Source: a virus
Taxonomy: Duplodnaviria > Heunggongvirae > Uroviricota > Caudoviricetes
Length of the DNA: 38,548 nucleotides
Direction: 5' to 3' (one strand)
Virus record (IMG/VR): IMGVR_UViG_2563366976_000006
Shown here: positions 1 to 37,614 of the stretch, one piece after another
How the letters are laid out: each line of letters opens with the position of its first letter
How positions within the stretch are numbered: the first letter of the stretch is position 1
Notes under the pieces: generated by a model
Seen by the model: the letters and a program-made list of their open reading frames with translations, nothing else
Told to the model about the DNA's origin: nothing
Database searches by the model: none
Made by a program: the position numbers and the translations under genes

Positions 1-1053
1 TTACGGGGTAATGCCAACCGCTGCCGCCACTTTGTCGCCACTTGGCAGCGTTGCCAGAGGATTGAAACGGAGCGCCGTTTCTAGATGATCCGGTGCCAGA
101 TGTGCGTAACGCATAGTCATTTTTATATCGTGGTGTCCGAGAATTTTTTGTAAGGCCAGAATGTTTCCACCCGACATCATGAAGTGCGCCGCAAACGTAT
201 GGCGCAGAACGTGTGTGAGTTGACCGCGAGGGAGCACGATAGACGTTTTTTCCATCACGGATAAAAATTGAAAATAGCAGTCTGTGAAGAAATTGAACCC
301 ATCAAGCGCCATGATCTCTTCGTAAAGCTCTTTACTGATAGGGATGCTTCTGTTTTTCTTCCCCTTCGTTCTGACAAAGGTAATTCGGTATTTGGTCACC
401 TGTGAGCGGGTAAGATTTACGGCTTCACGCCAGCGTGCGCCTGTGCTTAAGCATATCTTAACTACCGGTGCCAGAATTGGGTCCTGACGTTTGCAATCAG
501 CCAGCAATTCAACAATCTGCTCATGGGTAAGCCATGCCATCTCTTTTTCTGCGATGGTGAATTTTCGCATGTTCTCCAGTGGGTTCGGATACGACCATTC
601 GCCCAGACGGGATAGTTCGCTAAAAACACTACTTAGATAGCTTTGCTCCAGGTTAATGGTGACCGGGCTTGCTCCTTTCTTCCATTTCTCGCTGAAGTAG
701 ATCTCGCCTGTCAGGCGTTTATCTCGATAGTGGGCAAACATTTTAGAGGTGAGATCGGTTGCAAGAGGATTGCCCAGAGCGTCAACCATCAACAGCAATT
801 TGTCATAGACATGCTGCCCAGCTGTCAGAGATTTACCATGTAGTTTGAACCATAGCTCAACCACGTCTTTCAGTGTTCGACGATCCACTGATTCACCCAG
901 CCAGGGCTTTGCTTCGGTTTCTTCCATCGTGTGGCGCTCAAAAGCCAGTGCTTCGCCTTTGGTGGCGAATTGTTTACGCACACGACGCCCACTTCGTCCG
1001 GCGGGGTAACATTCGCAAAGCCATTTCCCTGTGGTTAGTTTTCGTACTGCCAT
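1..1053 (-). CDS. int: phage tyrosine integrase (P2/186 Int family)
   Basis: 350-aa ORF; C-terminal catalytic region with HxxR and a tyrosine (MTMRYAHL); stop codon at 1-3; position next to cI. Confidence 0.9.
   Translation of the reverse strand: MAVRKLTTGKWLCECYPAGRSGRRVRKQFATKGEALAFERHTMEETEAKPWLGESVDRRTLKDVVELWFKLHGKSLTAGQHVYDKLLLMVDALGNPLATDLTSKMFAHYRDKRLTGEIYFSEKWKKGASPVTINLEQSYLSSVFSELSRLGEWSYPNPLENMRKFTIAEKEMAWLTHEQIVELLADCKRQDPILAPVVKICLSTGARWREAVNLTRSQVTKYRITFVRTKGKKNRSIPISKELYEEIMALDGFNFFTDCYFQFLSVMEKTSIVLPRGQLTHVLRHTFAAHFMMSGGNILALQKILGHHDIKMTMRYAHLAPDHLETALRFNPLATLPSGDKVAAAVGITP
19..41. repeat. candidate attL core (cgctgccgccaCtttgtcgccaC)
   Basis: 21/23 identical to 35694-35716 in direct orientation; lies inside the 3' end of int. 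Confidence 0.5.
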
Positions 1054-1057
1054 AAAA

Positions 1058-1077
1058 AGCCCTCATATCAGAGGGCT
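1058..1077 (-). terminator. hairpin (agccctc/gagggct) followed by T-run on minus strand, overlapping the int Shine-Dalgarno
   Basis: 7-bp stem, 6-nt loop, then TTTTT immediately before the int ATG; GAGGG of the stem is the likely int SD. Confidence 0.4.
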
Positions 1078-1135
1078 AAATTTAACTGTATATGTAACCA
1101 GTAATCAATGTGTGATTACTATGAAACATACATTG

Positions 1136-2812
1136 CTAAGCAACATGTAGTTCATCGTTGGCGGAAGTGGCTGCTTTGCGCTCCTGCTCAATAGCTAGAG
1201 ACTCTCTATATTCTTTCGCCTCTGCAAACATTGTCCAGTGGGCGTTGATGTTCATGTCTTCAATAACTGATTTGATTTCTTTTAAATTTACGTTAAAAAA
1301 CTCTTTTCGTGAGTTAATTTTATTGACCTGCTTTTCGTTGAAAACTTTATGCAGATGGTTTTCTAATGATGGTGCATCATCACTATAAATCATCGCATGA
1401 ACATCGAACGAAAAAGGAACACTAGCATCTCCGAGTTCACGAACACGATCAAGTGGTTCAAGGCGGCGTGTCATTCCAATTTTATATACATCTTCGCCAA
1501 ATGAACCAATATTACTAATGATATAGACGTGGCCTGATCTGGTTTGTTGAGCCATAGAAATAGCTCGTTGATTTTTAGCTTCTGCTTCTTCATATTTTAA
1601 CTGTAGTTCAGCTATTTTTTGCTCTAAAGCTAAGCGTTGTTCTTCATTTGCAAGCATAAGTTCTTTCGTTGCTTTATTTATAGCTTGCTGAATAGCTTTT
1701 TCTTCTTTTTCAGCTTCTTTTATCGCTTTTTCATATTCTCTACGAGCTCTTTCCTCTTCACGAAGCTGTTCTTTAATCCTTCTTTGCTCTTCTTTTTCTT
1801 CGAGCATAATTTCATTAACTGCTACACCCCATTTTAGCTCGTTGAGTCTTGCCTGAAGATAGATGTCACTTATTTTTGCGGACCTAAAGGCAGAGCCATT
1901 GTAATTTACTAGTTGAAATGCATCTTTTATTTCTTGGGAAAGTTTTCCAAAATTGTTGTGTTTGACTTTTGATAAAATACTGTCAACTCTTCCATTGAAG
2001 GCATCCAAAACAAAGTTTATGGAAGTATTACGCCTGTTTTGCTCAACATAATCACACGAAGCAGCTTTATTAGTTTTTATTAATGATTTGGTTAACTCTC
2101 TGGCTTTTTGTAATTCCTTGCCTGCATCTGTAAATTCATAATTTTCTGCCAGCTCATCAAGTACACTACGGTTAGGGATGATCCATTCATCACCATAACC
2201 TTCAATTTTATTTTTCATTGATTTTGCAACTGCTTCATATTTTTCTGCAAACTCTTTAGCTTCATATGCTGAACCAGCAATCTCCTTTGCTCTTTCTTCT
2301 GCATCAGAAATAATTTTTACTGCATTGTCATTAGCATTTGAGATTAGCTCATTTGCTTTATTATTAGCATTATCAAGACGTTCTTTGGCTTTCAGGCGTG
2401 CATCGCGAGCGTCTTTGGTGATTGCTATAGCTTCGCTATTAGCGTTGCTTATTGTCATCTGAGCTTGATAATTTGCTTCGTTTACTGTTTTAGCCGCCTT
2501 AATTTGGGCATCATCTATTTTTTGCTTGGCTATTGAGTCCGCATTTTTTATCTTATTCTCTGCATCCATTACTGCGCTGTGCAATTCTTCGTATTGCCAC
2601 AATGGTGCTGCTCGCCCTTCAAGCTCTGATAATTCTCGTACGGTCTGTGCTAGTTTTTCTTGATTTTCAATCAGTTGGTTAGAAAGGGCTATGTTGTTAG
2701 CTGTCAGGTTATCTATAGCCGCTTTGTGTTTTTTACTTTGTTTAAATAATATTACAGCTAGAACAGGGGCGAGAAATGCTAATAAGAGTATAACGATGGC
2801 AAATGAATTCAT
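1136..2812 (-). CDS. membrane-anchored coiled-coil protein with DUF4041-like middle and T5orf172/GIY-YIG-like C-terminal domain (moron)
   Basis: 558-aa ORF; N-terminal hydrophobic helix, long E/K/A-rich coiled coil, C-terminal segment VYIISNIGSFGEDVYKIGMT typical of T5orf172-type domains; AT-rich relative to neighbours; AAGGA SD upstream. Confidence 0.6.
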   Translation of the reverse strand: MNSFAIVILLLAFLAPVLAVILFKQSKKHKAAIDNLTANNIALSNQLIENQEKLAQTVRELSELEGRAAPLWQYEELHSAVMDAENKIKNADSIAKQKIDDAQIKAAKTVNEANYQAQMTISNANSEAIAITKDARDARLKAKERLDNANNKANELISNANDNAVKIISDAEERAKEIAGSAYEAKEFAEKYEAVAKSMKNKIEGYGDEWIIPNRSVLDELAENYEFTDAGKELQKARELTKSLIKTNKAASCDYVEQNRRNTSINFVLDAFNGRVDSILSKVKHNNFGKLSQEIKDAFQLVNYNGSAFRSAKISDIYLQARLNELKWGVAVNEIMLEEKEEQRRIKEQLREEERARREYEKAIKEAEKEEKAIQQAINKATKELMLANEEQRLALEQKIAELQLKYEEAEAKNQRAISMAQQTRSGHVYIISNIGSFGEDVYKIGMTRRLEPLDRVRELGDASVPFSFDVHAMIYSDDAPSLENHLHKVFNEKQVNKINSRKEFFNVNLKEIKSVIEDMNINAHWTMFAEAKEYRESLAIEQERKAATSANDELHVA

Positions 2813-2832
2813 TTTAAAATCCTTTTACTATA

Positions 2833-3429
2833 TTAATTCGAGACTATTGTACTTCTTATACAAGCAACCACTTCAATATCAGAAAATGCACATTCAAAGC
2901 TATTCTCTGCTGTTGTAATTTTAATCATTCCTTTAGGAAGCCTTGTGATTTTTCGAATGGAATAGGTTCCGTCGATATTGATTAACCAGTTTCCATCAAG
3001 TACTTCAGAAAATTTTTGATCACAAATGTATGTGACGAGTCCATCCTGAACAACAATTGGTGATGAAAGGTTTGCAGGAAGAAATGATGAATCGAAGACA
3101 TATGAACCGTCTTCAATCATTTTGCCTGCGGCAAGGCGAAACTTAACAAGCTCTTCTGTAGCTGCTGTCAGCGAGCTTTGCTTAAGGCCTTGTCCGGTAG
3201 TTAACCATTTGAGGGAGGTTCCTGTTTCAAGAGCACATTGGATTATCCAGTCAGCAGGAAATGTATCCCGCAAATACCTGTTCGCTAGTGTGCTTTTTGA
3301 TACTTCCAAGTGATCAGCTAAAGCCTGTCGTGTCGTAAAGCCATAGGCTTCGACTAATCGCTCAATCGCAGCCTTACCACCTTTATTGGGATTTATTTTG
3401 ATCTCACTTGGGTACTTTGATGTTGACAT
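2833..3429 (-). CDS. cI: CI-type immunity repressor (phage 186 CI-like)
   Basis: 198-aa ORF divergent from apl/cII; N-terminal HTH-like region; position between int side and the pR/pL switch. Confidence 0.8.
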   Translation of the reverse strand: MSTSKYPSEIKINPNKGGKAAIERLVEAYGFTTRQALADHLEVSKSTLANRYLRDTFPADWIIQCALETGTSLKWLTTGQGLKQSSLTAATEELVKFRLAAGKMIEDGSYVFDSSFLPANLSSPIVVQDGLVTYICDQKFSEVLDGNWLINIDGTYSIRKITRLPKGMIKITTAENSFECAFSDIEVVACIRSTIVSN

Positions 3430-3524: not shown

Positions 3525-3746
3525 ATGACCCCTAACATTTCAATAACTCTGAATACGCCACACGTCACAATCGAGCGTTATAGCGAACTTACTGGTCTTT
3601 CAATCGACACAATCAACGATATGTTGGCGGATGGTCGCATTCCTCGGCATCGTCTTCGTAAAGACAAGAAAAGAGAAAAGGTAATGATCAACCTTGCTGC
3701 TCTTACCGTTGATGCACTTACTGATTGCAATGTTGTATTCAACTAG
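3525..3746 (+). CDS. apl: Apl-like excisionase/transcriptional regulator
   Basis: 73-aa ORF starting [10 protein letters not shown] with GGAG SD; first gene of the rightward early operon, 186 order apl-cII. Confidence 0.7.
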
Positions 3747-3778
3747 TTCCATTTTGGGATACATCAGAGGTGTCGACC

Positions 3779-4288
3779 ATGTTTGATTACCAAGTTTCCA
3801 AACATCCACATTTTGATGAAGCCTGTCGTGCATTCGCACTGCGCCACAATCTGGTGCAACTGGCAGAACGTGCGGGCATGAATGTGCAGATTCTGCGGAA
3901 CAAGCTGAACCCAGCTCAACCTCATTTATTAACCGCACCAGAAATCTGGCTGCTTACCGATCTGACTGAAGATTCAACGTTGGTAGATGGTTTTCTGGCA
4001 CAGATTCATTGTCTGCCATGTGTACCGATTAATGAGGTAGCAAAAGAGAAACTGCCGCATTACGTCATGAGCGCAACTGCAGAGATCGGGCGTGTTGCAG
4101 CAGGTGCGGTATCTGGTGATGTAAAAACTAGTGCCGGTCGTCGTGATGCTATCAGCAGCATTAACTCTGTAACACGACTGATGGCTCTGGCTGCTGTTTC
4201 ATTGCAAGCCCGTTTACAGGCTAATCCTGCGATGGCGAGTGCAGTTGATACCATGACTGGCCTTGGTGCTTCATTCGGTTTGCTGTGA
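3779..4288 (+). CDS. cII: CII-like lysogeny establishment activator
   Basis: 169-aa ORF starting [10 protein letters not shown], same length as 186 CII; follows apl. Confidence 0.75.
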
Positions 4289-4295
4289 GGTGTTT

Positions 4296-4592
4296 ATGCT
4301 GACGAAAGAACCATCATTTGCATCGCTGCTGGTAAAACAAAGCCCGGCAATGCACTACGGTCACGGCTGGATCACGGGTGAGGATGGAAAACGCTGGCAT
4401 CCATGTCATTCACAAGATGAATTGCTGTCTGAATTGACCACGAGGAAACGGAGAAAGTCCAAATGTATGCGGCAGAAAGTGAAGTGGTTTATCAATTTCG
4501 TTACAGAGGGGAGAGTTATTCAGTACCTGAAGATGATTTGCTCTGTTGCTATCCGTCATTGTCGGGCGATGGCAGTTACTTTTTCACGTTAA
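4296..4592 (+). CDS. small early protein, Fil-like (start uncertain)
   Basis: ATG at 4296 with GAGG SD; occupies the fil position of 186; overlaps next ORF in another frame. Confidence 0.4.
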   Translation: MLTKEPSFASLLVKQSPAMHYGHGWITGEDGKRWHPCHSQDELLSELTTRKRRKSKCMRQKVKWFINFVTEGRVIQYLKMICSVAIRHCRAMAVTFSR

Positions 4593-4687
4593 AGGATGGG
4601 ACGTTTTTACGGGGAGAGCAGGTTAAAGAGACGATACGAAAAAATGTATCTCCTCTTGAGCGTTACCGTAAGAACAAAGAACGATAG
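4463..4687 (+). CDS. small early hypothetical protein (dhr position)
   Basis: 74-aa ORF with GGAG SD 9 nt upstream of ATG; overlaps 3' part of previous ORF. Confidence 0.35.
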   Translation: MYAAESEVVYQFRYRGESYSVPEDDLLCCYPSLSGDGSYFFTLKDGTFLRGEQVKETIRKNVSPLERYRKNKER

Positions 4688-4709
4688 CTGCGTTTGGGGG
4701 ATATGAAGT

Positions 4710-5051
4710 ATGGCAATTAATGGCGCTGCAGCAACTGTTCCATTAAGCCCCGGTGAACGCCTGAATGGACTTAATCACATTGCGGAGTTAAGGGCGAAAG
4801 TTTTTGGCCTGAATATTGAGTCAGAGCTTGAGCGGTTTATTAAAGATATGCGTGATCCACGGGATATCAATAATGAACAAAATAAACGGGCACTGGCTGC
4901 CATATTCTTTATGGCAAAAATTCCAGCTGAACGTCATAGCATCAGCATTAATGAGCTGACCACTGACGAAAAGCGGGAGCTGATTAAAGCAATGAATCAT
5001 TTTCGTGCAGTGGTGAGCTTATTTCCCAGACGGCTAACCATGCCGAATTAA
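4710..5051 (+). CDS. hypothetical early phage protein
   Basis: 113-aa ORF in the early operon, same strand. Confidence 0.5.
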   Translation: MAINGAAATVPLSPGERLNGLNHIAELRAKVFGLNIESELERFIKDMRDPRDINNEQNKRALAAIFFMAKIPAERHSISINELTTDEKRELIKAMNHFRAVVSLFPRRLTMPN

Positions 5052-5579: not shown

Positions 5580-6433
5580 GCACCATCCTGAAATGGGCGG
5601 GAAATAAAACCGCCATTATGCCAGAACTGAAAAAATACCTTCCTGCTGGCCCGCGACTGGTTGAACCTTTCGCGGGTTCCTGTGCTGTGATGATGGAAAC
5701 GGATTATCCCAGCTATCTGGTTGCGGATATTAATCCTGATTTAATCAACCTCTATAAAAAGGTTGCCGCTGATTGTGAATCGTTTATATCTCGCGCCAGA
5801 GTTTTATTTGAGATCGCAAACAGGGAGGTGGCTTATTACAACATAAGGCAGGAGTTTAACTGCTCAACTGAAATTACTGATTTCATGAAAGCGGTATATT
5901 TCCTGTATCTCAATCGTCACGGTTACCGTGGTTTATGTCGCTATAACAAGAGCGGGCATTTCAACATTCCCTACGGTAATTATAAAAATCCGTATTTCCC
6001 TGAAAAAGAACTTCGCACATTTGCAGAAAAAGCCCAGCGAGCAACGTTTATCTGCGCCAGCTTTGATGAAACGCTGGCGATGTTGAAGGCGGGAGATGTG
6101 GTGTATTGCGATCCGCCATATGACGGTACGTTTTCCGGCTATCACACTGATGGTTTCACTGAAGATGACCAGTATCACCTGGCATCCGTTCTTGAACATC
6201 GGTCATCAGAAGGACATCCGGTCATTGTTTCTAACAGTGACACATCCCTGATCCGTTCGCTGTATCGCAATTTTACTCACCACTATATCAAGGTAAAACG
6301 CAGCATCGGTGTGGCAGCTGGCGAGGGTAAATCAGCAACAGAAATCATTGCTGTTTCCGGGCCGCGCTGCTGGATGGGATTTGATTATTCGCGTGGCGTG
6401 GATAGTTCTGCCGTGTACGGAGTACGTGCATGA
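5576..6433 (+). CDS. dam: DNA adenine methyltransferase (Dam-like, N6-adenine)
   Basis: Starts [11 protein letters not shown]; FAGS motif and DPPY catalytic motif ([10 protein letters not shown]). Confidence 0.85.
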
Positions 6434-8844
6434 GTCATGCCGATATGAACAACTGCTGCGGCTTTAACGAGGCTGCCGCAGCATTCTCATGGAACAGCCC
6501 GAAAAAGGCCATTAACCCTTATCTGGACCCGGCGGAAGTTGCGCCGGTTTCTACGCTTTCAAACCTGATCACTCTGTACGCTGCCGATAACGAGCAGGAA
6601 CAGTTGCGCCGCGAGGCACTGAGTGATCAGGTCTGGGAGCGTTATTTCTTTAATGAATCACATGATCCTGTCCAGCGCGAAATGGAGCAGGATAAGCTCA
6701 TTAGCCGGGCAAAGCTGGCGCATGAGCAGCAGCGTTTTAATTCAGACATGGTCATTCTGGCGGACGTCAACGCCCAGCCTTCCCATATCAGCAAGCCGCT
6801 GATGCAACGTATTGAATACTTCAGCAGCCTGGGCAGGCCAAAGGCTTATTCCCGCTATTTACGTGAGACGATTAAGCCATGTCTGGAACGACTGGAGCAT
6901 GTACGCGACAGTCAGCTATCTGCATCTTTTCGCTTTATGGCAAGCCATGAAGGGCTGGACGGCCTGCTGATCCTGCCTGAAATGAGTCAGGATCAGGTGA
7001 AACGCCTGTCCACCCTGGTAGCTGCGCATATGAGTATGTGCCTTGATGCAGCTTGTGGTGATTTGTATGCCACCGATGACGTTAAGCCAGAAGAAATCCG
7101 CAAGACATGGGAAAAGGTGGCAGCGGAAACCCTGCGTCTGGATGTCATCCCACCTGCGTTTGAGCAACTCCGTCGGAAAAGAAACCGCCGTAAACCCGTG
7201 CCGTATGAACTCATTCCGGGTTCGCTGGCGCGTATGTTGTGCGCCGACTGGTGGTATCGGAAATTATGGAAGATGCGTTGCGAATGGCGGGAAGAGCAGT
7301 TGCGCGCTGTTTGCCTGGTCAGCAAAAAAGCATCTCCTTATGTCAGCTATGAAGCCGTGATGCATAAACGTGAGCAGCGCCGTAAGTCGCTGGAGTTTTT
7401 CCGTTCTCATGAACTGGTGAACGAAGACGGTGACACGCTGGACATGGAGGATGTGGTAAACGCCAGCAGCAGCAACCCTGCGCATCGCCGCAATGAGATG
7501 ATGGCCTGTGTTAAAGGTCTGGAGCTTATCGCGGAAATGCGCGGTGACTGCGCCGTTTTCTACACTATCACCTGTCCGTCGCGTTTCCATTCCACGCTAA
7601 ATAACGGCAGACCAAACCCGACCTGGACAAACGCGACGGTAAGACAAAGCAGCGATTATCTGGTCGGCATGTTTGCTGCATTTCGTAAGGCGATGCACAA
7701 AGCCGGGTTGCGCTGGTATGGCGTGCGGGTGGCTGAGCCGCATCATGATGGCACAGTTCACTGGCACCTGTTGTGTTTCATGCGCAAAAAAGACCGCCGT
7801 GCCATCACTGCATTACTGCGTAAGTTTGCCATCCGTGAAGACCGCGAGGAGCTGGGCAATAACACTGGGCCGCGCTTTAAGTCTGAGTTGATTAACCCGC
7901 GCAAAGGAACGCCGACAAGCTACATCGCGAAATATATCAGTAAGAACATTGACGGTCGTGGTCTGGCTGGCGAGATCAGCAAGGAAACGGGTAAATCTCT
8001 GCGTGATAACGCTGAATACGTGAATGCCTGGGCGTCTCTGCATCGTGTTCAGCAATTCCGCTTCTTTGGTATTCCGGGGCGTCAGGCTTACCGTGAACTT
8101 CGCTTGCTGGCTGGTCAGGCGGCAAGGCAACAGGGTGACAAAAAAGCAGGTGCGCCGGTACTGGATAACCCGCGTCTTGATGCCATTCTGGCTGCTGCTG
8201 ATGCTGGTTGTTTTGCCACCTACATCATGAAGCAGGGCGGCGTACTGGTTCCCCGTAAATATCACCTCATCAGAACCGCTTATGAAATCAACGAAGAGCC
8301 GACCGCCTATGGCGATCACGGCATTCGTATTTATGGCATCTGGTCACCCATTGCAGAGGGCAAGATCTGCACTCATGCAGTGAAGTGGAAAATGGTTCGT
8401 AAAGCCGTTGACGTTCAGGAGGCGGCAGCCGACCAGGGCGCTTGCGCCCCTTGGACTCGTGGCAATAACTGTCCCCTTGCTGAAAATTTGAACCAACAGG
8501 AGAAAGATAAATCAGCTGATGGGGACACCAGAACGGACATTACCCGCATGGATGACAAGGAGTTGCACGATTACCTGCACAGTATGAGCAAAAAAGATCG
8601 CCGGGAGCTGGCAGTAAGGTTGCGCCTGGTTAAACCGAAAAGGTGTAAAGACTACAAACAGCGAATTACAGATCATCAGCATCAGCAGCTCGTCTATGAA
8701 CTGAAGTCCAGAGGATTTGATGGCAGCGAGAAAGAAGTCGATTTGCTCCTTCGCGGTGGCAGTATTCCATCAGGAGCAGGCCTGCGTATCTTCTATCGGA
8801 ACCAGCGTCTGAAGGAAGATGATAAATGGCGGAACCTGTATTAA
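6430..8844 (+). CDS. A: replication initiation endonuclease (P2 gpA family)
   Basis: 804-aa ORF; HxH-type motif region (HWHLL) typical of rolling-circle initiators; position after the early genes. Confidence 0.85.
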
Positions 8845-8936
8845 TTACGCGGGTTAACAATTCGTGCTCTTAATAATACCAGGCATATCAGGCTGATGAA
8901 CGTAAAAAAACGTTTTACATCAGTAAGATTATTATA

Positions 8937-8956
8937 TACTGTAAATATAAACAGTG
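8937..8956. promoter_or_regulatory. LexA (SOS) box TACTGTAAATATAAACAGTG
   Basis: CTGT-N8-ACAG consensus just upstream of the tum-like ORFs. Confidence 0.6.
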
Positions 8957-8997
8957 GTTATACGTACAGTATTTCTTGTGGTGTCATAGGAGGAAAG

Positions 8998-9186
8998 ATG
9001 CAGGACTATTTTTTGGAGTCTTTGAAGCTCCAGCGCATTGATTTTTTTCTTAAGCTTGTAGCGGCTAGTGAGTGTAGTGATGAAGAGAAGGGGCTGGCCC
9101 TGCAGTGGGTTTCTGAACTGACAGATGAACTCATGGCAAAAATCAGAACCCACGAATACAACCGCTCAATGGATGTCATCAATTGA
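8998..9186 (+). CDS. Tum-like (antirepressor operon) small protein, N-terminal part
   Basis: 62-aa ORF with GGAGGA SD, downstream of the LexA box; different frame from the next ORF. Confidence 0.4.
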   Translation: MQDYFLESLKLQRIDFFLKLVAASECSDEEKGLALQWVSELTDELMAKIRTHEYNRSMDVIN

Positions 9187-9196
9187 GGTGACTTTT

Positions 9197-9430
9197 ATGC
9201 GCATTGAAATAATGATCGATAAAGAGCAGAAGATTAGCCAGTCTACCCTGGACGCCCTTGAATCCGAGCTTTACCGCAATCTGCGCCCCCTGTATCCCAA
9301 AACGGTAATTCGTATCCGCAAAGGTAGCTCTAACGGTGTGGAACTGACCGGACTGCAACTGGACGAAGAAAGAAAACGAGTGATGAAAATTATGCAGAAG
9401 GTGTGGGAAGACGACAGCTGGCTGCATTAA
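9197..9430 (+). CDS. DinI-family protein (Tum C-terminal-like)
   Basis: 77-aa ORF starting MRIEIMIDKE, DinI-like pattern; SOS-regulated position. Confidence 0.65.
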   Translation: MRIEIMIDKEQKISQSTLDALESELYRNLRPLYPKTVIRIRKGSSNGVELTGLQLDEERKRVMKIMQKVWEDDSWLH

Positions 9431-9565
9431 GAAACGTTGCTGGCGTCTGAACTTGTTTCTGGCGTCAGCAAGGTTGAACAACGAGCCCTTGCGAGGCGTT
9501 AGCTCTGTAGTGCATGTCTATGCCGCATGAGATCGCATGATCGTTTGAGGATCGTTTTTGCTAAG

Positions 9566-9590
9566 GCCCGCCAGAACTGGCGGGCTTTTG
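9566..9590 (+). terminator. rho-independent terminator (GCCCGCCAG..CTGGCGGGC TTTT)
   Basis: 9-bp GC-rich perfect stem followed by TTTT after the tum/dinI operon. Confidence 0.6.
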
Positions 9591-9640
9591 CGTAGATCAT
9601 GCAGGTGCATGAAAACCACTACATAAAGCGGGCAGGCGTG

Positions 9641-9659
9641 GCGGGGATACGAGCGCGCG
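9641..9659 (+). other. cos-like cohesive-end sequence (GGCGTGGCGGGGA...)
   Basis: First 13 nt match the 186 cohesive end as I recall it, 14/19 to P2; correct position (after early region, before Q) and orientation. Confidence 0.45.
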
Positions 9660-9675
9660 CTTGCCATCGAACTCT

Positions 9676-9858
9676 TTCTTTATTAGACTCAAAATGCTCT
9701 TTAGTGTAGGAACAATGGTTCCAGCCGGGTGATTAGCCAGGCTCTAATTTATTGTCCATAACAGGGTTGCGAAAGACACACACTCCTCCTTCGCATATCC
9801 TGCTTGGGCAGTCTATGCGAAGGAGGAGTGCATGTCTTTCGCTGTCTTTAGTAAAGGG
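9676..9858 (+). ncRNA. candidate retron msr-msd non-coding RNA (boundaries approximate)
   Basis: Immediately upstream of the retron RT; contains a 72-nt near-perfect hairpin and small msr-like hairpin (GGAAC AATG GTTCC); tentative a1/a2 pairing 9676-9687 with 9847-9858 needs G-U wobbles. Confidence 0.4.
9770..9841 (+). repeat. long inverted repeat / hairpin, candidate msd stem-loop
   Basis: 28-nt arms complementary at 26/28 positions, 16-nt loop containing an additional 4-bp stem. Confidence 0.6.
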
Positions 9859-9860
9859 CA

Positions 9861-10844
9861 ATGCTCGCTGCAATTGTTGCAGCGAGCATATCTGAGATGG
9901 ATATTATGCAGCTTGAAAAAAAATTATGTGAAAAATTCAACCTTACCCCTTTGAAGCTTTCTATCCTCTCATCCAAAGCTCCAAAAAAATATCGCGTATA
10001 TTATATACCCAAGAGAACTTCTGGTCTTAGGGCGATTGCTCAGCCGACTAAAGAGTTGAAGCAAATTCAACGTTTTTTGGTTTCGGAGTTGAAGCCTCTT
10101 TTGCCAATTCATTCATCAGCAATGGCTTACAGATGTGGCATAAGCATTAAGGATAATGCTGAACGTCACAAGAACAATCCATTTATATTAAAAATGGATT
10201 TTCAGAATTTTTTTAATAAAATTAAACCGGAAATTTTTTTTGATAAGTTCAAAAAAATGGATGTTCAACACAACGCCAGAGATGAAATACTTCTGCACAA
10301 TTTTTTGTTTTGGAAGCCAGGGCAAAAAAGAAGTATTACACATATATTGAGCGTAGGAGCACCGAGTTCTCCATTCATTAGTAATTTTGTCATGTTTGAT
10401 TTTGATTCAGCTATCAGTGAGTGGTGTGCTGATTTTGGTATTGTTTATACTCGTTATGCGGATGATATAACATTTTCAACCGCTAGAAAAAATATTTTAT
10501 TCAGTGTTCCTAAAATAGTTAAAAACATGCTTGCTGAGCACGCATCAGGTATTACCATTAATGAAGCCAAGACCATTTTTACATCTAAGGCTCACAATAG
10601 GCATGTTACAGGTGTAACTATTACTACTGATGGTGAATTATCTATAGGGCGAAAGAGAAAAAAATATCTTTTCTCTCTTGTTTTTAAATATAGCAATGGG
10701 AACTTGACAAGTGAAGAAATTTTATATGCTAAAGGACTGATGTCTTATTGCATGCATATTGAAAGAAATATAATAATAAGAATGAAAAATAAGTATGGTG
10801 CGGAAGTTATCAATAAATTTCTTAAGGAAGGTTGTGATGAATGA
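9861..10844 (+). CDS. retron-type reverse transcriptase
   Basis: 327-aa ORF; RVYYIPKRTSGLRAIAQPTKELK motif and YADD catalytic box; start may be 9861, 9897 or 9906. Confidence 0.85.
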   Translation: MLAAIVAASISEMDIMQLEKKLCEKFNLTPLKLSILSSKAPKKYRVYYIPKRTSGLRAIAQPTKELKQIQRFLVSELKPLLPIHSSAMAYRCGISIKDNAERHKNNPFILKMDFQNFFNKIKPEIFFDKFKKMDVQHNARDEILLHNFLFWKPGQKRSITHILSVGAPSSPFISNFVMFDFDSAISEWCADFGIVYTRYADDITFSTARKNILFSVPKIVKNMLAEHASGITINEAKTIFTSKAHNRHVTGVTITTDGELSIGRKRKKYLFSLVFKYSNGNLTSEEILYAKGLMSYCMHIERNIIIRMKNKYGAEVINKFLKEGCDE

Positions 10845-12450
10845 TTCTAAAAAAAGAGTGGATAATGTTTTTTCGGAGTTTATTGGTCTGATTAATGATG
10901 GCGTGCCTGAGGATAAATTAAAATATTCACCTGTATTGAATTTGCTAAATGAATCTTTAAATAAAGACAACTTATACCTTAAGAAAATATCAATTGTAGA
11001 CTTCAAAAGATTAAGGGATGTTATTGTAAATCTTGAAGATGATCTCACAGTTTTTGTTGCTGACAACGGCTATGGTAAAACAACTTTGCTTGATGCGATC
11101 GCAATTTCTTTAAGTTGGCTTCGTTCTAATATACAGAAAAAAGATAAACCTGGGTCGTATATAAGGGAAGTGGATATAAATAACTCAAAAGATGCCTTGT
11201 ATGCATCTATTGCTGCAACATTTAAAGTACAAGAGCTGAATACTAATGTTTTAATCACAAATGCAAAAGATGGTGTGTCTTTTAAACGCAGTAACGATTT
11301 ACAAGAAATTAAGCTGCTAGCAACAATGTACCGCTATGTTAATACGTTCTTAGATAATTCAAGTCTACCTGTGATGGCTTATTATTCAATTGTTAGGTCT
11401 GTCGTTGGTGGTGGTATTGATAATAGAAGAAGAAGCGGTAAGAATAAAGTTTCTTGGTCCAAATTTGATGTGTATGACGATTTCATGTTTGATAGAAATG
11501 ATTTTGGCGAATTTTTAAATTGGCTCATGTTTTTATCGAATAAATCCGCTCATGAGAATCCAGTGGTCACTGATAACCCAGAGTTACTCAGAAAGGAAAT
11601 AGAAAGTATCAATAACACAATTGAACAACTAAGTATTGTTTCTAACATCGATTTTAGTATTATTAATCAGCTAAAGAGTAGTCTTGAAGAGAAAAAAAAC
11701 CAATTAAATAAGTTTAGTAGTGAAGGGTTTTTAAGTTCATCTGTCTTATATAGGAATGTAATAAATGCTATATTGAGATTTTTGCCTGAATTCGAAAGCA
11801 TTAATCTGGTTTATAGTGAGACTGATGTTAAGCTTGTTCTTATCAAGAATGGTATTCAATTAGATGCGCAACAACTCTCACAAGGTGAGAAAACCATACT
11901 TACTCTGGTAGGTGATTTAGCTCGCCGACTTTCCCTTTTGAATCCAGAGCTACAAAATCCATTTGAAGGTCAAGGCATAGTATTAATTGATGAGGTTGAT
12001 TTGCACCTTCATCCAACTTGGCAGCAGAAAATTATAGAGCGGCTATTAACAACCTTTCCTAATGTTCAGTTTGTTCTTTCTACACACAGCCCTCAAGTCA
12101 TATCTACTGTTCCTGCCAGGAGCATAAGGATTTTAGAGGAGGTGGAAGATGAATTTGGTGATATTTCGATAAAAGCTGTTAGGCCCCGCTTTCAAACTAA
12201 AGGGGTGATGAATAGTGATGCATTACTTTATGGAATGGGAGCAGACCCTGCGCCTCCTGTAGAAGAAGTAAAATGGTTGGAAGAGTACAAAAAATTTATT
12301 GAATTGGATCAGTTTGATAGCGATTCAGCGCTTAAACTACGCCAGAATATAATAAGTCACTTTGGGGAAGATCATCCTTTAGTTGTAGAACTCGATCAGA
12401 TGACTTCACTCATGGAGTTTAAAAGAAAAATTAGAAATAAAAAACAATGA
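10837..12450 (+). CDS. retron effector ATPase (PtuA-like, ABC/AAA-type)
   Basis: Walker A DNGYGKTT, Walker B LIDEVDLHLH; start overlaps RT stop by 8 nt. Confidence 0.8.
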   Translation: MNDSKKRVDNVFSEFIGLINDGVPEDKLKYSPVLNLLNESLNKDNLYLKKISIVDFKRLRDVIVNLEDDLTVFVADNGYGKTTLLDAIAISLSWLRSNIQKKDKPGSYIREVDINNSKDALYASIAATFKVQELNTNVLITNAKDGVSFKRSNDLQEIKLLATMYRYVNTFLDNSSLPVMAYYSIVRSVVGGGIDNRRRSGKNKVSWSKFDVYDDFMFDRNDFGEFLNWLMFLSNKSAHENPVVTDNPELLRKEIESINNTIEQLSIVSNIDFSIINQLKSSLEEKKNQLNKFSSEGFLSSSVLYRNVINAILRFLPEFESINLVYSETDVKLVLIKNGIQLDAQQLSQGEKTILTLVGDLARRLSLLNPELQNPFEGQGIVLIDEVDLHLHPTWQQKIIERLLTTFPNVQFVLSTHSPQVISTVPARSIRILEEVEDEFGDISIKAVRPRFQTKGVMNSDALLYGMGADPAPPVEEVKWLEEYKKFIELDQFDSDSALKLRQNIISHFGEDHPLVVELDQMTSLMEFKRKIRNKKQ

Positions 12451-12462
12451 GGAGACTTGAGG

Positions 12463-13131
12463 ATGAAATTTCTTCGAAGGATATATCCTGGCCCTAACGT
12501 GCTAAGTAGTTATGATTTTAATACTCAAACTTGGGATGATGTATCATCATCTGACAAAAAAGATATTTGGGTAGATTTAGTTAAAATGCAAGGCAAAGTA
12601 TGCGCTTATTGTGAAAGGAAAATAAACCTAACAAAAGAGGGGGATAAGCATATTGAGCATTTCAAGCGAAAAGGTATTCATCGCGAATTAACGTTTAACT
12701 GGGAGAATCTGTTTGGTTCGTGTGGGGAAAAACAAAGATGCGGATTCTACAAAGACAAACAAGAATATAATGAGGGTGACCTGTTAAAAGCTGATGAAAT
12801 GGATCCTGAAGATTTTTTTGTTTTTATCTATAGTGGTGATGTTATTGTAAAACCTGAGATAAATGAACGAAATAAAGTAATAGCTGAGGTTACCCTGAGG
12901 GTATTCAATCTTAATCCCGAGAACGGTGGTGTTAAAGCCGAGAGAAGAAATGTCCTCGAGAAAGGCTTAGGCACTATAAAGGGGTATGTTAAGATTGCTC
13001 AAGACTTAATTGATAGTGGTGAGGATGCAGAAGAAGTTCGGCAATATGTTCGGGATGAGTATTATGAAAAAATTTCACAAATGGATTTTAAAACTGCAAG
13101 GAAACATGTTTTTGAAGCATTTCTACCTTGA
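12463..13131 (+). CDS. retron effector HNH endonuclease (PtuB-like)
   Basis: CAYCERK...HIEHF...C-x-x-C pattern; GGAG SD; 12 nt after ATPase stop. Confidence 0.75.
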   Translation: MKFLRRIYPGPNVLSSYDFNTQTWDDVSSSDKKDIWVDLVKMQGKVCAYCERKINLTKEGDKHIEHFKRKGIHRELTFNWENLFGSCGEKQRCGFYKDKQEYNEGDLLKADEMDPEDFFVFIYSGDVIVKPEINERNKVIAEVTLRVFNLNPENGGVKAERRNVLEKGLGTIKGYVKIAQDLIDSGEDAEEVRQYVRDEYYEKISQMDFKTARKHVFEAFLP

Positions 13132-13158: not shown

Positions 13159-14187
13159 TTAGATTATGTACTCATCAAAATTAATTATGTCTGATCCAAG
13201 CCAATCATTGAGATCGAGTATTTTCCTTTGCAATGGTTTTAATTCATTAGTGACGAAAACCTTACTAGCCTTCTCCACATCCCCAAACCCCCCGACATTA
13301 TTAGGCATTATCCCCATCATTTGTGGCGGCACACGATGCGCCGCCATCATGTCGTCCCGGCTCACGTTCTTGATATTCAGGAACTCATCCTTCGCCGCCA
13401 CTTCTGACAACGGGATAATCTGAAGCCCGTCCTTTTTACCGTTAGGCGAGTACATAAACAGGTTACGGAAGTTACCAGGACCTTTGGCGCTTTTCATCGC
13501 ATTGCGGAGGTTGTTCACATCCTCCTGGTTCTGCGCAGCATCGGTCATGTACATGATGAAGCCTGCATGACTGCCGTTAATGTAATACTTGCGGCGGAAC
13601 AGCGTGGCGGACTCGTTGAGCAGAGCTGACGGAATGGCAGAAAGATAACCGGGCAGGCCGTAGATCTCCTGGTTGATGTCCGGTTCTATCAGATGAAAAA
13701 TGCTGCCTTTCGTGAACTGATACGGCTGGGTTGTCATACCGTATTGCACAAACCAGTAGGTATCCAGGTCTAACCCGCGTCGGGTGTATTTTGCCAGAGC
13801 AGGCTCAAGGGCTATAACTTCACCGAAGCGGTTCGTGCGTTTCTCCAGGTAGGCGTTACCAAATACCAGATAGTCCTGCACAAAACGTGAAAAAGCCTGC
13901 TGGCTGAGCAGCGGGTGAGGGATGTAGGTACTGGTCAGAATGTTGCATTTCACCGCAATTGGTGAGCTGTGATGCACGGCGGCGCGGAAGGTTCGTGCCA
14001 GTCCGTCAAAGCTGACGGGCGGCTCATACCAGCGATCCATCTGTACGCATTCCACATAGTCCAGCAGTTCACGGCGGTCCAGAACAGGAACGGGATCGCC
14101 AAAGCTGAATGCTTCGGCTGAAGTCTGGCTTTTATGCTTGAGCTGATTCGTCGCCGCAGCGCGGTTTTTCTTACTCTTTCCCATCAA
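13159..14187 (-). CDS. Q: portal protein (P2 gpQ family)
   Basis: 342-aa ORF, first of the leftward Q-P operon; size and position match P2 Q. Confidence 0.85.
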   Translation of the reverse strand: MMGKSKKNRAAATNQLKHKSQTSAEAFSFGDPVPVLDRRELLDYVECVQMDRWYEPPVSFDGLARTFRAAVHHSSPIAVKCNILTSTYIPHPLLSQQAFSRFVQDYLVFGNAYLEKRTNRFGEVIALEPALAKYTRRGLDLDTYWFVQYGMTTQPYQFTKGSIFHLIEPDINQEIYGLPGYLSAIPSALLNESATLFRRKYYINGSHAGFIMYMTDAAQNQEDVNNLRNAMKSAKGPGNFRNLFMYSPNGKKDGLQIIPLSEVAAKDEFLNIKNVSRDDMMAAHRVPPQMMGIMPNNVGGFGDVEKASKVFVTNELKPLQRKILDLNDWLGSDIINFDEYII

Positions 14188-21085: not shown

Positions 21086-21527
21086 ACTGCAGAAGGTGGA
21101 CGACTGGTTGAGTGCCTTGCTGGCGAATCTGGAACCAGCCACGAGAAGTCGCATGATGCGCCAGCTGGCGCAGGAACTGCGCCGGACACAACAGAAGAAC
21201 ATCAAGATGCAGCGCAATCCAGATGGCAGTAGTTATGAACCGCGACGGGTAACAGCACGCAGTAAAAAGGGGCGTATCAAACGTCAGATGTTTGCAAAGC
21301 TGCGCACCACAAAATATCTGAAAACTGCCGCCAGCGCCGATTCTGCCAGCGTGCAGTTTGAAGGTAAGGTGCAGCGCATTGCCCGCGTTCATCACTACGG
21401 CCTGCGCGATCGTGTCAGTCGTAAGGGACCGGAGGTCCGTTACGCAGAGCGTCGCCTGCTGGGTGTAAATGATGATGTTGAAGCAAATATTCGTGATATT
21501 TTGCTACGTTGGCTAAGCCAATATTAA
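21078..21527 (+). CDS. S: tail completion/virion morphogenesis protein (P2 gpS family)
   Basis: 149-aa ORF overlapping R end. Confidence 0.8.
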   Translation: MAELQKVDDWLSALLANLEPATRSRMMRQLAQELRRTQQKNIKMQRNPDGSSYEPRRVTARSKKGRIKRQMFAKLRTTKYLKTAASADSASVQFEGKVQRIARVHHYGLRDRVSRKGPEVRYAERRLLGVNDDVEANIRDILLRWLSQY

Positions 21528-21528
21528 T

Positions 21529-22224
21529 TCATGTCAAATATTGATAACTTTTATCAATTTCAAGTTTGTGAAATTTGGTTATCTTTGAATCAATGTATAA
21601 ATCTATGAACATTGCTATCCCTATCATAAATATAAATAGAATGCTTAAATAAATAATGGGGGTGGCAATCATAATTGTAAATTTGTTCTTGTCTGTCGTT
21701 TTTGCTAACTCTTCTTTCTTTTCAGGAATTAGCAAGTAGCTACAAATGAAATCTTTTGTGGCTTGTTGGATTGAAGTGATCTTATCAAGCTGTGACTTGT
21801 CAACACATACATCTGGTGTGATATTCCATTCAGGTGTGTATGGTATGTTTTGTGCGTGTTCTGGTTTCATCCAAAAGGAATCTTTTGTTTCTCTATGTGT
21901 GATTTCAACCCAATTTACGGGTTCTTTGGCGATGAAATAGGTAAATTTATAAAAACAAAGTGCTGAGGTCATAATGACTGCAATTCCAAATGAGACGATA
22001 AATATTTTATGTTTTTTAATATGGGGTTTTGTGCTTAACTTATATTTGCAAAGACTAAGTCTAATAATTGGCTTTGATATTCCAATCTTTGATATCAAAA
22101 AGTCTTCTTCTGGATAGGATGTGTTTAACCATGACCAAAAAGCCGAGATGCCACCTATAAGCCATTTAAATATAAGACCACCAATGGCCGTAGCTAAAAA
22201 TGTATTTATTTTATCGATTTCCAT
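21529..22224 (-). CDS. AT-rich moron: predicted 3-TM membrane protein of unknown function, antisense to late operon
   Basis: 231-aa ORF on opposite strand between S and V; strongly AT-rich DNA; hydrophobic helices at N-terminus, middle and C-terminus. Confidence 0.6.
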   Translation of the reverse strand: MEIDKINTFLATAIGGLIFKWLIGGISAFWSWLNTSYPEEDFLISKIGISKPIIRLSLCKYKLSTKPHIKKHKIFIVSFGIAVIMTSALCFYKFTYFIAKEPVNWVEITHRETKDSFWMKPEHAQNIPYTPEWNITPDVCVDKSQLDKITSIQQATKDFICSYLLIPEKKEELAKTTDKNKFTIMIATPIIYLSILFIFMIGIAMFIDLYIDSKITKFHKLEIDKSYQYLT

Positions 22225-22260
22225 ATAGATCCCCTTTTGGTTGAGCTATCTGGGATTATA

Positions 22261-22278
22261 TGTATGAGAGACAGAACA
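22261..22278. promoter_or_regulatory. late-promoter activator site TGT-N12-ACA upstream of V
   Basis: tgtatgagagacagaaca about 50 bp upstream of V start. Confidence 0.5.
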
Positions 22279-22324
22279 ATGAAGCGAGGTTCGTTAAAAT
22301 AGGAATCACGGGCATTCTTTCTTC

Positions 22325-22902
22325 ATGAACGCACAATTAACCGAAATCATGCGCCTTATCACCAACCTGATCCGCACTGGTGTAGTCACCGAAGTGGACC
22401 GGGAAAACTGGCTTTGCCGGGTGAAAACGGGCGACCTTGAAACCAACTGGATTAACTGGCTGACGCTGCGCGCGGGTAATGCCGCACATGGTGGAAACCA
22501 TCGGAAGGTGAGCAGGTGGTGCTGCTGAGTCTGGGAGGCAATCTGGAAACCGCCTTTGCGTTGCCCGCTGTCTATTCGAATCAGTTCGCGCCACCTTCGA
22601 CGTCGGCGGACGCCTGCGTGACAGAACATCCTGACGGTGGCTGGTTTGAATACGAACCCGCCACCGGGCGCTGGTATGTCAGGGGCATCAAATCCATGGT
22701 CATTGAGGCTGCCGACAACATCACCCTGAAAACCAGTGAGTTTGTGCTGGAGGCTGACCGCACGCGTATTAACAGCGAAGTAGTGATCAATGGTGGTGTT
22801 ACCCAGGGCGGCGGTGCAATGAGTTCTAACGGAATTGTGGTTGATGCACATCAGCATACTGGCGTCCTGAAAGGCGGCGACACAACCGGAGGCCCGGTAT
22901 GA
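22325..22902 (+). pseudogene. V: baseplate spike gene (P2 gpV family) interrupted by a frameshift near 22480-22490
   Basis: N-terminal 52 codons in one frame (22325 onward) and the rest in another (ending 22902); the two ORFs together cover a normal-length V. Confidence 0.65.
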
Positions 22903-23258
22903 CGCTTTATAGCGGGATGAACAATACCAGCGGCAAAGTCATTACTGATATTGACCATCTGCGCCAGTCGGTGCGGGACATTCTGCTGACGCCGCAGGGT
23001 AGCCGCATTGCCCGTCGGGAATATGGTTCCCTACTGTCGGCACTGATAGATCAGCCACAAAATCCGGCATTACGCCTGCAGGTCATGTCGGCAGTGTATG
23101 TGGCGCTGAGTCGCTGGGAGCCACGGCTGACGCTGGATTCCATCACCATCAACAGCAACTTTGACGGTTCTATGGTGGTGGAGCTGACCGGGCGGCGGAA
23201 TAACGGTGTGCCTGTGTCCCTTTCCGTATCAACAGGAGCAGAGAATGGCAGTGATTGA
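22899..23258 (+). CDS. W: baseplate protein (P2 gpW family)
   Basis: 119-aa ORF in conserved V-W-J-I order. Confidence 0.85.
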   Translation: MTLYSGMNNTSGKVITDIDHLRQSVRDILLTPQGSRIARREYGSLLSALIDQPQNPALRLQVMSAVYVALSRWEPRLTLDSITINSNFDGSMVVELTGRRNNGVPVSLSVSTGAENGSD

Positions 23259-35716: not shown

Positions 35717-35773
35717 CGTTAAAAAACAGTGCTTCTAACATCATGATTTTAAATAGCATAAATTTCAGGCAAC

Positions 35774-35816
35774 AAAAAACCCATCAACCTTGAACCGAAA
35801 TGGCGGGGTTGATGGG
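35774..35816 (-). terminator. candidate rho-independent terminator downstream of ybjL (minus strand)
   Basis: 10-bp stem cccatcaacc/ggttgatggg followed by TTTTTT on minus strand; loop is long (17 nt). Confidence 0.45.
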
Positions 35817-35928
35817 CTCCACAAAATGGGGACATCAAAGAAAAGCAGTGGCACTAATTAAGACTGATGCCCTGCGGAAAAGTTCTGCGGTTGTGCAAAA
35901 AAATTTCATTTTCAGGGCAACTTCAGTT

Positions 35929-37614
35929 TTATCCTAATCCTGGCCATACCATGACGATGATTGTCCCTGCCAGCGTCAGCAGGACGTTGGCGATTGCATA
36001 GGTGCCCGCATAGCCCAGCGCCGGGATGTTACTGCGAGCTGTATCACTGATGATCTCCATTGCCGGCGCGCAGGTACGTGCGCCCATCATTGCGCCGAAC
36101 AACAGCGCGCGGTTCATTCGCAATACATAAGCACCGAACAAGAAACAGATAACCACGGGCACCAGACTGACAATCAATCCGGCAATCAACATCTGACCGC
36201 CAATCGCGCCCAGGCCGTTATTAATACCGCTACCGGCGCTCAGACCAACGCCTGCCATAAACACCATCAAGCCGAACTCTTTCACCATGCTTAATGCACC
36301 CTGCGGAATGTAACCGAAGGTCGGGTGGTTAGCACGCATAAAGCCCAGCATAATTCCGGCGAATAACAACCCGGCAGCGTTCCCCATGCCGAAACTGAAT
36401 GTGCTGAACTGGAAGGTGATCATCCCGATCATCAGCCCAATAACAAAGAAGGCGCAGAATGCCAGCAGGTCAGTGACCTGGCTGTGAATCGAGATAAAGC
36501 CGATGCGATCGGCGATGGTTTTTACGCGGCGGGCATCGCCGCTGACTTGTAAAACGTCACCTTTGTTAAGCACGACGTTGTCATCTATCGGCATCTCAAT
36601 CTGGCTACGAATGACGCGGTTAAGGAAGCAACCGTGATCGGTCAACTTCAGTTGTGCGAGACGTTTACCTACAGCGTTATGGTTTTTAACGACCACTTCT
36701 TCAGTGACGATACGCATGTCGAGAAGGTCACGATCGAAAACTTCTTTACCGTTACGGAAGCTGGGATCGAGTCGGGCATGGGCGTCGGGATAGCCTACCA
36801 ACGCTATTTCATCGCCCATTTGTAGCACGGCATCACCGTCTGGATTTGCCAGAATCCCGTTACGTCGAATACGTTCAATGTAGCAGCCGGTTTGTCGATA
36901 AATACCCAGTTCACGCAGATTTTTGCCGTCGGTCCAGGCCACCAGTTCCGGGCCGACGCGATAGGCGCGGATCACCGGTAAATAAACCTTACGGTTGGCA
37001 TCAGTGTCCAGGCCACGTTCGCGGGCGATTTGCTGGGCGCTGGTCTGTAAGTCCTGATGCTGCAATTTCGGCAAGTAACGCGCACCAACAATCAAACTCA
37101 CCAGACCGATTAAATAGGTTAAGGCATACCCGAGGCTCAGATTATCCAGTGCCAGTGAGAGCTGCCTGCTTTCCATGCCGGAATGACGCAGTGTATCGCC
37201 AGCACCGACCAGAACCGGTGTCGACGTCATAGAGCCTGCTAACATACCGGCCGTCAGGCCAATATCCCAGCCAAACAGCTTACCTAACCCTAAGGCGATC
37301 ACCAGCGCACTGCCAACCATCACCAGTGCTAACATTAGGTAATTTTTCCCATCGCGAAAAAAAATGGAAAAAAAGTTCGGTCCGGCTTCGACCCCGACGC
37401 AGAAAATAAACAGCATAAAGCCAAGATTAAGCGCATCGGTGTTAATGCTGAAATGTTGTTGGCCTAATAACAGCGATACGACTAAAACGCCAATGGAATT
37501 ACCCAGTTGGATCGAACCAAGTCGTAACTTTCCGAGACATAGCCCAAGCGCGAGGACCACAAATAATAACAGAATGTAATTCCCATTTAACAATTCGGCG
37601 ACGTTTATATTCAC
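35929..37614 (-). CDS. ybjL: putative transport protein YbjL (AspT/YidE/YbjL family)
   Basis: 561-aa polytopic membrane protein with central soluble domains; recognised as E. coli YbjL from the translation. Confidence 0.8.

Follow-up and report, generated by a model that had tools for sequence, protein, structure and literature searches.

A SNIPE-family gene in the cI–int slot of a P2/186-like prophage

The DNA studied here, IMG/VR record IMGVR_UViG_2563366976_000006 (38,548 nt; hereafter the window), holds a P2/186-like (Peduoviridae) prophage that runs from the stop codon of the integrase gene (int) at base 1 to ∼35.7 kb. Between int and the repressor gene (cI) lies an open reading frame (ORF) of 558 amino acids (aa), and this gene is a member of the known SNIPE (PD-lambda-1) defence family; the finding is real, not new. 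Very probably, the gene is accessory cargo of the cI–int slot and its product acts, as SNIPE does, by direct defence at the injection step. An abortive-infection toxin, a homing endonuclease, an SMC-like ATPase and a role in the phage life cycle were weighed as rival explanations, and all ranked weaker. A first-pass annotation of the window, made from the sequence alone, had described an AT-rich gene of ∼1.7 kb between cI and int on the same strand, and the gene lies exactly there, at 1136..2812 on the minus strand, with a GC content of 36.9% (0.369) compared to 49.9% (0.499) for the whole window.

Family identity and domain architecture

The same annotation had surmised a defence or exclusion function, and strong homology to SNIPE indicates that this guess was right. 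Its further statement that the architecture was not that of a named system did not hold up. The PADLOC profile PD-Lambda-1 (PDLC03976) matches with E = 2.3e-120 (aa 107–550 on model positions 37–481 of 491), newer RefSeq records name a 100%-identical gene ‘SNIPE associated domain-containing protein’, and the mechanism of SNIPE has been published (PMC13190303). A second PADLOC profile (PDLC03977, E = 1.3e-116) and PHROG 1847 (function unknown, E = 6e-133) match as well. With family, architecture and mechanism all in print, the gene detectable by standard defence finders and its name in RefSeq, the discovery value is small. Vassallo et al. (2022, PMC9519451) identified PD-lambda-1 in E. coli ECOR26 by functional selection; it was later renamed SNIPE and characterized by Saxton et al. 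(Nature 2026, PMC13190303).

Pfam matches to DUF4041, T5orf172 and MUG113 each scored above the curated gathering cut-off. The gene and the parts of its product, with the evidence for each in brackets, are as follows (AF2, AlphaFold2; pLDDT, predicted local distance difference test).

1136..2812, minus strand: SNIPE / PD-lambda-1 family gene, single-gene defence cargo (ORF of 558 aa with an ATG start; profile matches)
2744..2803, minus strand: predicted single-pass transmembrane (TM) anchor, aa 4–23, followed by the Lys-rich stretch KQSKKHK (hydropathy scan; helix in the AF2 model)
2024..2743, minus strand: Ala/Glu/Lys/Asn-rich helical stalk, a divergent N-terminal ‘adapter’ region, aa 24–263 (identities, weak profile matches, AF2 helices 4–204)
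1847..2014, minus strand: DUF4041 core, aa 267–322 (Pfam PF13250, E = 3.1e-12, 46.6 bits against a cut-off of 27; pLDDT 82–92)
1538..1837, minus strand: charged linker helix from DUF4041 to the nuclease, aa 326–425 (AF2 helices 316–387 and 390–422)
1253..1534, minus strand: T5orf172/MUG113 (GIY-YIG-type) nuclease domain, aa 427–520 (PF10544, E = 9e-18; PF13455, MUG113, aa 443–520, E = 4e-20)
1361..1363, minus strand: codon of E484, the equivalent of SNIPE catalytic E414 (BLASTP alignment APSLE/APSLE; E414A primer context in the PMC13190303 supplement)

The mean Kyte-Doolittle hydropathy over 19 residues reached 3.16 at aa 4–23 and exceeded 1.6 nowhere else in the protein. Because a Lys-rich stretch follows this segment, the positive-inside rule predicts an N-out/C-in topology. 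A first AF2 run, based on 25 close homologues, was poor (pLDDT 52), and a second, based on 98 more diverse sequences, gave a mean pLDDT of 75. The resulting model begins with helices over residues 4–204 (TM and stalk), followed by a helical domain at 216–309 that includes DUF4041 (pLDDT 82–92), linker helices at 316–422, and a C-terminal β-β-α-β-α unit at 427–490 of moderate confidence. As modeled, this layout matches the elongated shape described for SNIPE. The first-pass annotation had read an N-terminal TM helix, a long helical region, DUF4041 and a T5orf172/GIY-YIG-like C terminus from the sequence, and these are borne out by hydropathy, Pfam matches above cut-off and AF2. The Pfam scan and structure prediction that it had proposed as checks thus yielded significant domains and an elongated helical model. 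Searches of PDB sequences with the full-length protein and its profile returned only weak matches to ATP synthase b or coiled coils, and those with a nuclease-only profile returned no credible match. NCBIfam gave only sub-threshold coiled-coil matches for the 558-aa protein.

The sequence of the experimentally tested SNIPE was recovered by way of a 74-nt native stretch, rebuilt from the primers in PMC13190303 and present in 131 complete E. coli genomes. We used the 500-aa protein of E. coli 118UI (WP_109866709.1), an identical-type copy of ECOR26 RCP76574.1; its ends fit the cloning primers, and N250, L253, W257, E264 and E414 stand at their published positions. BLASTP aligned residues 264–541 of our protein with 195–472 of the tested SNIPE at 51% identity over 279 aa (E = 5e-77) and found no match across the first ∼260 residues of the 558-aa protein. 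Segment by segment, identity to the tested SNIPE is as follows.

TM segment: 30%
N-terminal stalk: 18%
DUF4041 core: 28%
Linker helix: 47%
Nuclease: 70%

Since the APSLE context is identical in the two proteins, E414 of SNIPE corresponds to E484 here. This residue is conserved at a level of at least 90% in one alignment and is invariant in a diverse alignment of the domain.

GenBank phage records mislabel the gene as encoding a ‘chromosome segregation ATPase’, a product name that appears in ON470620 (6001–7677) and OM835953 (2501–4177). Apart from this name, a structural or SMC-like role in chromosome segregation could appeal to SMC and DivIVA profiles, which match the protein’s coiled-coil parts weakly and below threshold. 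However, the SMC match (E = 0.0026, 15.5 bits against a cut-off of 729) is limited to the charged linker helix, neither Walker A ([GA]xxxxGK[ST]) nor Walker B (hhhhD[DE]) matches anywhere in the 558 residues, and the specific domains are DUF4041 and T5orf172. We regard such a role as hardly conceivable, and the label itself was rejected because the NTPase motifs are absent. The stalk likewise has weak Pfam matches, to DivIVA and ATP-synt_B, that fall below cut-off.

The cI–int slot

The following features surround the gene.

2833..3429, minus strand: 186-type cI repressor gene, directly upstream on the same strand (Pfam Phage_CI_repr, 8e-32; Phage_CI_C, 3.5e-27)
2820..2824, minus strand: Shine-Dalgarno-like AAGGA, 8 nt 5′ of the gene’s ATG (direct sequence reading)
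1054..1135, minus strand: int leader, which marks the cargo slot’s fixed right-hand limit and is kept whatever the cargo (homology end at 1135)
1..1053, minus strand: P2/186-type tyrosine integrase gene (int), downstream on the same strand (Pfam Int_N and Phage_integrase)

The stop codon of cI and the ATG of the SNIPE-family gene are 20 nt apart. A scan found no terminator-like site between the two genes and no sigma-70-like site upstream of the SNIPE-family gene that could be its own promoter (3 sites versus 7.1 in shuffled sequence); an Rfam scan found no RNA family within or near the gene. In phage 186 (NC_001317), cI (22433–23011) and int (21423–22433) abut, as the first-pass annotation had stated for int and the repressor, and they are annotated as a single lysogenic operon from pL. 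Because of the 20-nt gap, the lack of a terminator-like site and the annotation of the 186 operon, co-transcription of the SNIPE-family gene with cI in the lysogen is plausible, judging from sequence. The int leader (∼80 nt) contains inverted repeats (ATGTATG...CATACAT and ACTGG...ACAGT) and, at 1058–1077, a terminator-like GC-rich hairpin followed by a T-run that extends to the int ATG. The leader’s role could be to dampen transcription that reads into int from cI and the cargo, or to regulate the translation of int.

To see how the gene is distributed, we searched 5,426 complete E. coli genomes. The integrase is matched in 1,136 of them, and the full int–gene–cI arrangement occurs in 164 (3%); this is also the count for the SNIPE-family gene, which apparently always occupies this slot. 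The layout is that of a stand-alone gene, with cI and int as neighbors here and in all 164 genomes and with no partner gene. Phage 186 and ESSI2_ev040 have nothing in the slot, and in the latter 78 nt separate cI from int. Relatives with a 94–96% identical integrase carry other cargo, and those from E. coli share an attachment region adjoining rcdA. The alternative cargos given here are examples that we inspected.

NZ_CP173442 2640–4578 and Klebsiella phage 4LV2017 1851–3844: 329/349-aa hypothetical protein
NZ_CM142781, cI–int slot: small YdcA-family gene

The 329/349-aa protein has no PADLOC match and no significant Pfam match (sub-threshold coiled-coil only). It is paired with an unusually long CI, of 312 aa in NZ_CP173442 and about 313 aa in 4LV2017, and the former has two Phage_CI_repr helix-turn-helix stretches. 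The cargo and the long CI may together form an uncharacterized defence or immunity module. NZ_CM142781 also carries, at 3541–4769, a Panacea-domain protein and a hypothetical protein beyond int, between int and host rcdA, a hint of one more site for cargo at the end of the prophage.

Homology between the window and the relatives with other cargo ends at base 1135, one base before the gene’s stop codon, and resumes inside cI at 3199–3247 (about 3200–3250). Because it resumes only within cI, the C-terminal part of the repressor has been swapped together with the cargo. Conserved anchors thus flank unrelated genes in related elements, and the cI–int slot is a cargo hotspot. These data agree with the view of the first-pass annotation that the gene is accessory cargo rather than a conserved core gene of P2/186 phages.

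A role in the prophage’s own life cycle (integration or excision, or maintenance of lysogeny) would be compatible with the gene’s placement between cI and int within the lysogenic operon and with an acquisition that is linked to the swapped C-terminal part of CI. However, the gene is missing from phage 186, from ESSI2_ev040 and from the majority of prophages that have this integrase (of the 1,136 genomes with an int match, 164 carry the gene), and hence it is dispensable for the life cycle. The family also occurs elsewhere in lambdoid prophages and in many contexts unrelated to P2. A life-cycle role in place of an anti-phage one is very improbable.

The gene might instead be selfish, a GIY-YIG homing-endonuclease-like insertion between cI and int that benefits neither host nor prophage. 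T5orf172/GIY-YIG domains are known from homing endonucleases, the gene has a higher AT content than the prophage, it borders the int leader with single-base precision, and its close relatives are scattered over distant taxa and phages. On the other hand, neither a TM anchor nor a 200-residue stalk nor DUF4041 characterizes such enzymes. The replacement of unrelated cargo along with part of cI is better explained by recombinational turnover of a hotspot than by site-specific homing, and a homologue has demonstrated defence activity. Selection also argues against this explanation. Relative to the 94.9%-identical copy in OM835953, the ratio of nonsynonymous to synonymous substitution rates (dN/dS) is 0.059 for the ORF as a whole. 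By segment, dN/dS is 0.02–0.09 wherever substitutions suffice, with only five differences in the 30-codon TM segment; outside this short segment, strong purifying selection acts over the full length, including the non-nuclease parts. We give the homing explanation a very slim chance. The family comprises 1,408 clusters at 50% identity (E ≤ 1e-30), and this number, together with the dN/dS of 0.059, rules out a chance ORF.

A cI–integrase defence hotspot is reported, in the passages of Rousset et al. (2022, PMC9122126) on the hotspot, for K139-like P2-related phages of Vibrio. Those passages concern Vibrionaceae and make no mention of the enterobacterial 186-like slot, which holds a SNIPE homologue, the 329/349-aa protein, a YdcA-family gene, or nothing. 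The enterobacterial slot thus acts as a cargo hotspot like the one in Vibrio.

Relatives of the gene and other prophage loci

Relatives of 558 aa, annotated as ‘DUF4041 domain-containing proteins’ and 82–85% identical, are found in Citrobacter, Salmonella, Klebsiella and Enterobacter. Others, ∼50% identical over nearly the full length, are found in Halomonas, Aeromonas, Shewanella and Pseudoalteromonas, and a few occur in phage records. All these align nearly end to end, stalk included. By sequence comparison, the 558-aa protein belongs to a distinct full-length subclade of the SNIPE family. An N-terminal TM helix is present in about 66% of SNIPE homologues, making it typical but not universal (PMC13190303). 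‘ATP synthase subunit b (6N2Y_b2)’ is the class given for the N-terminal region of 66 TM-bearing homologues and ranks second in frequency among their N-terminal matches (PMC13190303 Supplementary Table 3). With the profile of our subclade, ATP synthase subunit b sequences give weak matches, PDB 6N2Y_b2 among them. Given that 6N2Y_b2 is listed for SNIPE homologues, the N-terminal type of the 558-aa protein is already catalogued.

Two of the phage records deserve comment. A full-length homologue in PP438427 (‘Synechococcus phage Ssp-JY37’, 3881–5548) is 35% identical to the 558-aa protein in the N-terminal region, 68% in DUF4041 and 70% in the nuclease. It is 87–91% identical to proteins from Halomonas/Vreelandella genomes and metagenomes, a match that one would not expect in a phage of Synechococcus and that points to another true host or to contamination. 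OM835953 (‘Klebsiella phage KP12 clone KP12_3’, Vequintavirinae) contains a P2/186-like int–SNIPE–cI–cII segment that is ∼96% identical to this E. coli prophage. Because such a segment lies inside a record classified under Vequintavirinae, the taxonomy or assembly of OM835953 looks doubtful.

The prophage carries other cargo. A three-gene type I-A retron occupies 9861–13131 on the plus strand, at the classic hotspot of P2, flanked by the gpA-like replication gene (6430–8844) and the portal gene (13159–14187, minus strand). Its reverse transcriptase matches PADLOC RT_I-A (1.5e-131), its PtuA-like ATPase scores 3.6e-189 (ATPase_I-A, 9.5e-161), and its PtuB-like HNH protein scores 8e-116 (HNH_I-A, 1.4e-58). 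At the gathering threshold, Rfam detected no msr/msd RNA in 8844–9860, where one is expected. Two ORFs lie on the opposite strand within the block of tail genes: 21529–22224 (minus strand, 231 aa), with a match to DUF6216 (E = 2e-11), and 22306–22857 (minus strand, 183 aa), with no Pfam or PADLOC match. The pair may represent a second site for cargo, comparable to P2’s Z/fun hotspot.

Two features belong to the host flank.

35771–35849, minus strand: host RybB small RNA (Rfam, 105 bits)
35929–37614, minus strand: YbjL-like permease gene (Asp-Al_Ex/TrkA_C)

At the other end, the int end of the prophage adjoins rcdA/ybjJ in relatives. Given the RybB/YbjL-like flank here and rcdA/ybjJ at the int end in relatives, the prophage sits between rcdA and rybB. 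Since the 3′ end of rybB faces the prophage, attB is suggested to overlap it.

Proposed mechanism and comparison with known systems

In the tested SNIPE, a single-pass TM helix holds the protein in the inner membrane, with DUF4041 and the GIY-YIG nuclease in the cytoplasm (PMC13190303). Defence is lost upon the E414A substitution or deletion of DUF4041, a domain that binds DNA and contacts the tape measure protein; the partners of SNIPE are ManYZ and the tape measure proteins of siphoviruses. SNIPE lacking its TM helix is toxic and cuts host DNA. Cleavage by the intact protein is confined to injection and cells survive at high multiplicity of infection (MOI), a case of direct defence, and there is no protection against the myoviruses and podoviruses of the BASEL collection (all PMC13190303).

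By homology, the N-terminal helix of the 558-aa protein would anchor it in the inner membrane and leave the rest in the cytoplasm, and this tethering would keep the nuclease off the chromosome. When a superinfecting phage (a siphovirus in the tested case) injects its genome, DUF4041 would engage, where the genome enters, both the DNA and the tape measure protein complex; the incoming DNA would then be cut by the C-terminal GIY-YIG-type nuclease, with Glu484 as the presumed catalytic residue. The cell would survive, making this direct defence and not abortive infection. The divergent ATP-synthase-b-like stalk is expected to set the entry route or the phage recognized. Transcription of the gene probably starts at the lysogenic promoter and includes cI. 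The analysis of sequences itself established family membership and domain order, conservation of the catalytic residue, a predicted TM segment, purifying selection, and the gene’s accessory status in a slot of variable content. Membrane localization, nuclease activity, cleavage during injection and partner proteins are taken from the literature on a homologue that is 51% identical over the C-terminal half, and it is by analogy that we infer the activity, mechanism, target range and lysogen expression of the 558-aa protein.

The main competing view of the nuclease is that of an abortive-infection toxin, tethered in the uninfected cell and released or activated upon infection so as to destroy host DNA and kill the cell. 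The toxicity of the TM-less SNIPE indicates an enzyme able to attack the chromosome, and the divergent N-terminus and DUF4041 of this subclade could in principle be wired otherwise than in the tested protein. However, that protein defends directly, with survival at high MOI and action only during injection, and the sequence of the 558-aa protein offers no hint of a release mechanism, be it a protease site or a partner gene, with cI and int as its flanks. Abortive infection is therefore very improbable here, and we favor SNIPE-like direct defence at injection.

The protein and the tested SNIPE share the same domain order: an N-terminal single-pass TM segment, a helical region, DUF4041, a long linker helix and a C-terminal T5orf172/GIY-YIG nuclease. 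Hydropathy places the single TM segment at the matching position in both, with basic residues next to it. Both are single-gene systems, prophage-borne and AT-rich (35% GC for SNIPE, 37% here). They differ in length (558 versus 500 aa), with ∼60–70 additional residues in the N-terminal stalk here, and at positions of enhancing mutations, where W257 is replaced by K327 and E223 by S292. Whereas SNIPE resides in a lambdoid prophage, between ren and the nin region, the gene described here has its place between the cI and int genes of a P2/186-like myovirus prophage; from these different sites it follows that the family moves between prophage types and slots.

Because the stalk and DUF4041 have diverged so strongly from the tested SNIPE, its dependence on ManYZ and its lambda specificity cannot be transferred to the 558-aa protein. 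Carriage by a myovirus prophage fits the published sparing of myoviruses by SNIPE. A more speculative idea, unlikely as it stands, is that this subclade recognizes some injection apparatus or inner-membrane entry factor other than ManYZ or a lambda-type tape measure protein, perhaps that of competing myoviruses. If so, the subclade would be a natural specificity variant that could help to explain how injection sites are located by SNIPE proteins. More generally, a natural and widespread SNIPE variant with a different N-terminal adapter and DUF4041 surface could serve to probe whether phage specificity is set by these regions, as has been proposed in print.

Inner-membrane exclusion offers a last comparison. 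HK97 gp15, T4 Imm and P22 SieA are examples of prophage superinfection exclusion in which DNA entry is blocked at the inner membrane. SNIPE-family proteins resemble them in being prophage-encoded, in their location at the inner membrane and in acting at the step of genome injection. The difference lies in the outcome for the DNA: those proteins block its entry without a nuclease domain, whereas SNIPE-family proteins degrade it as it enters.

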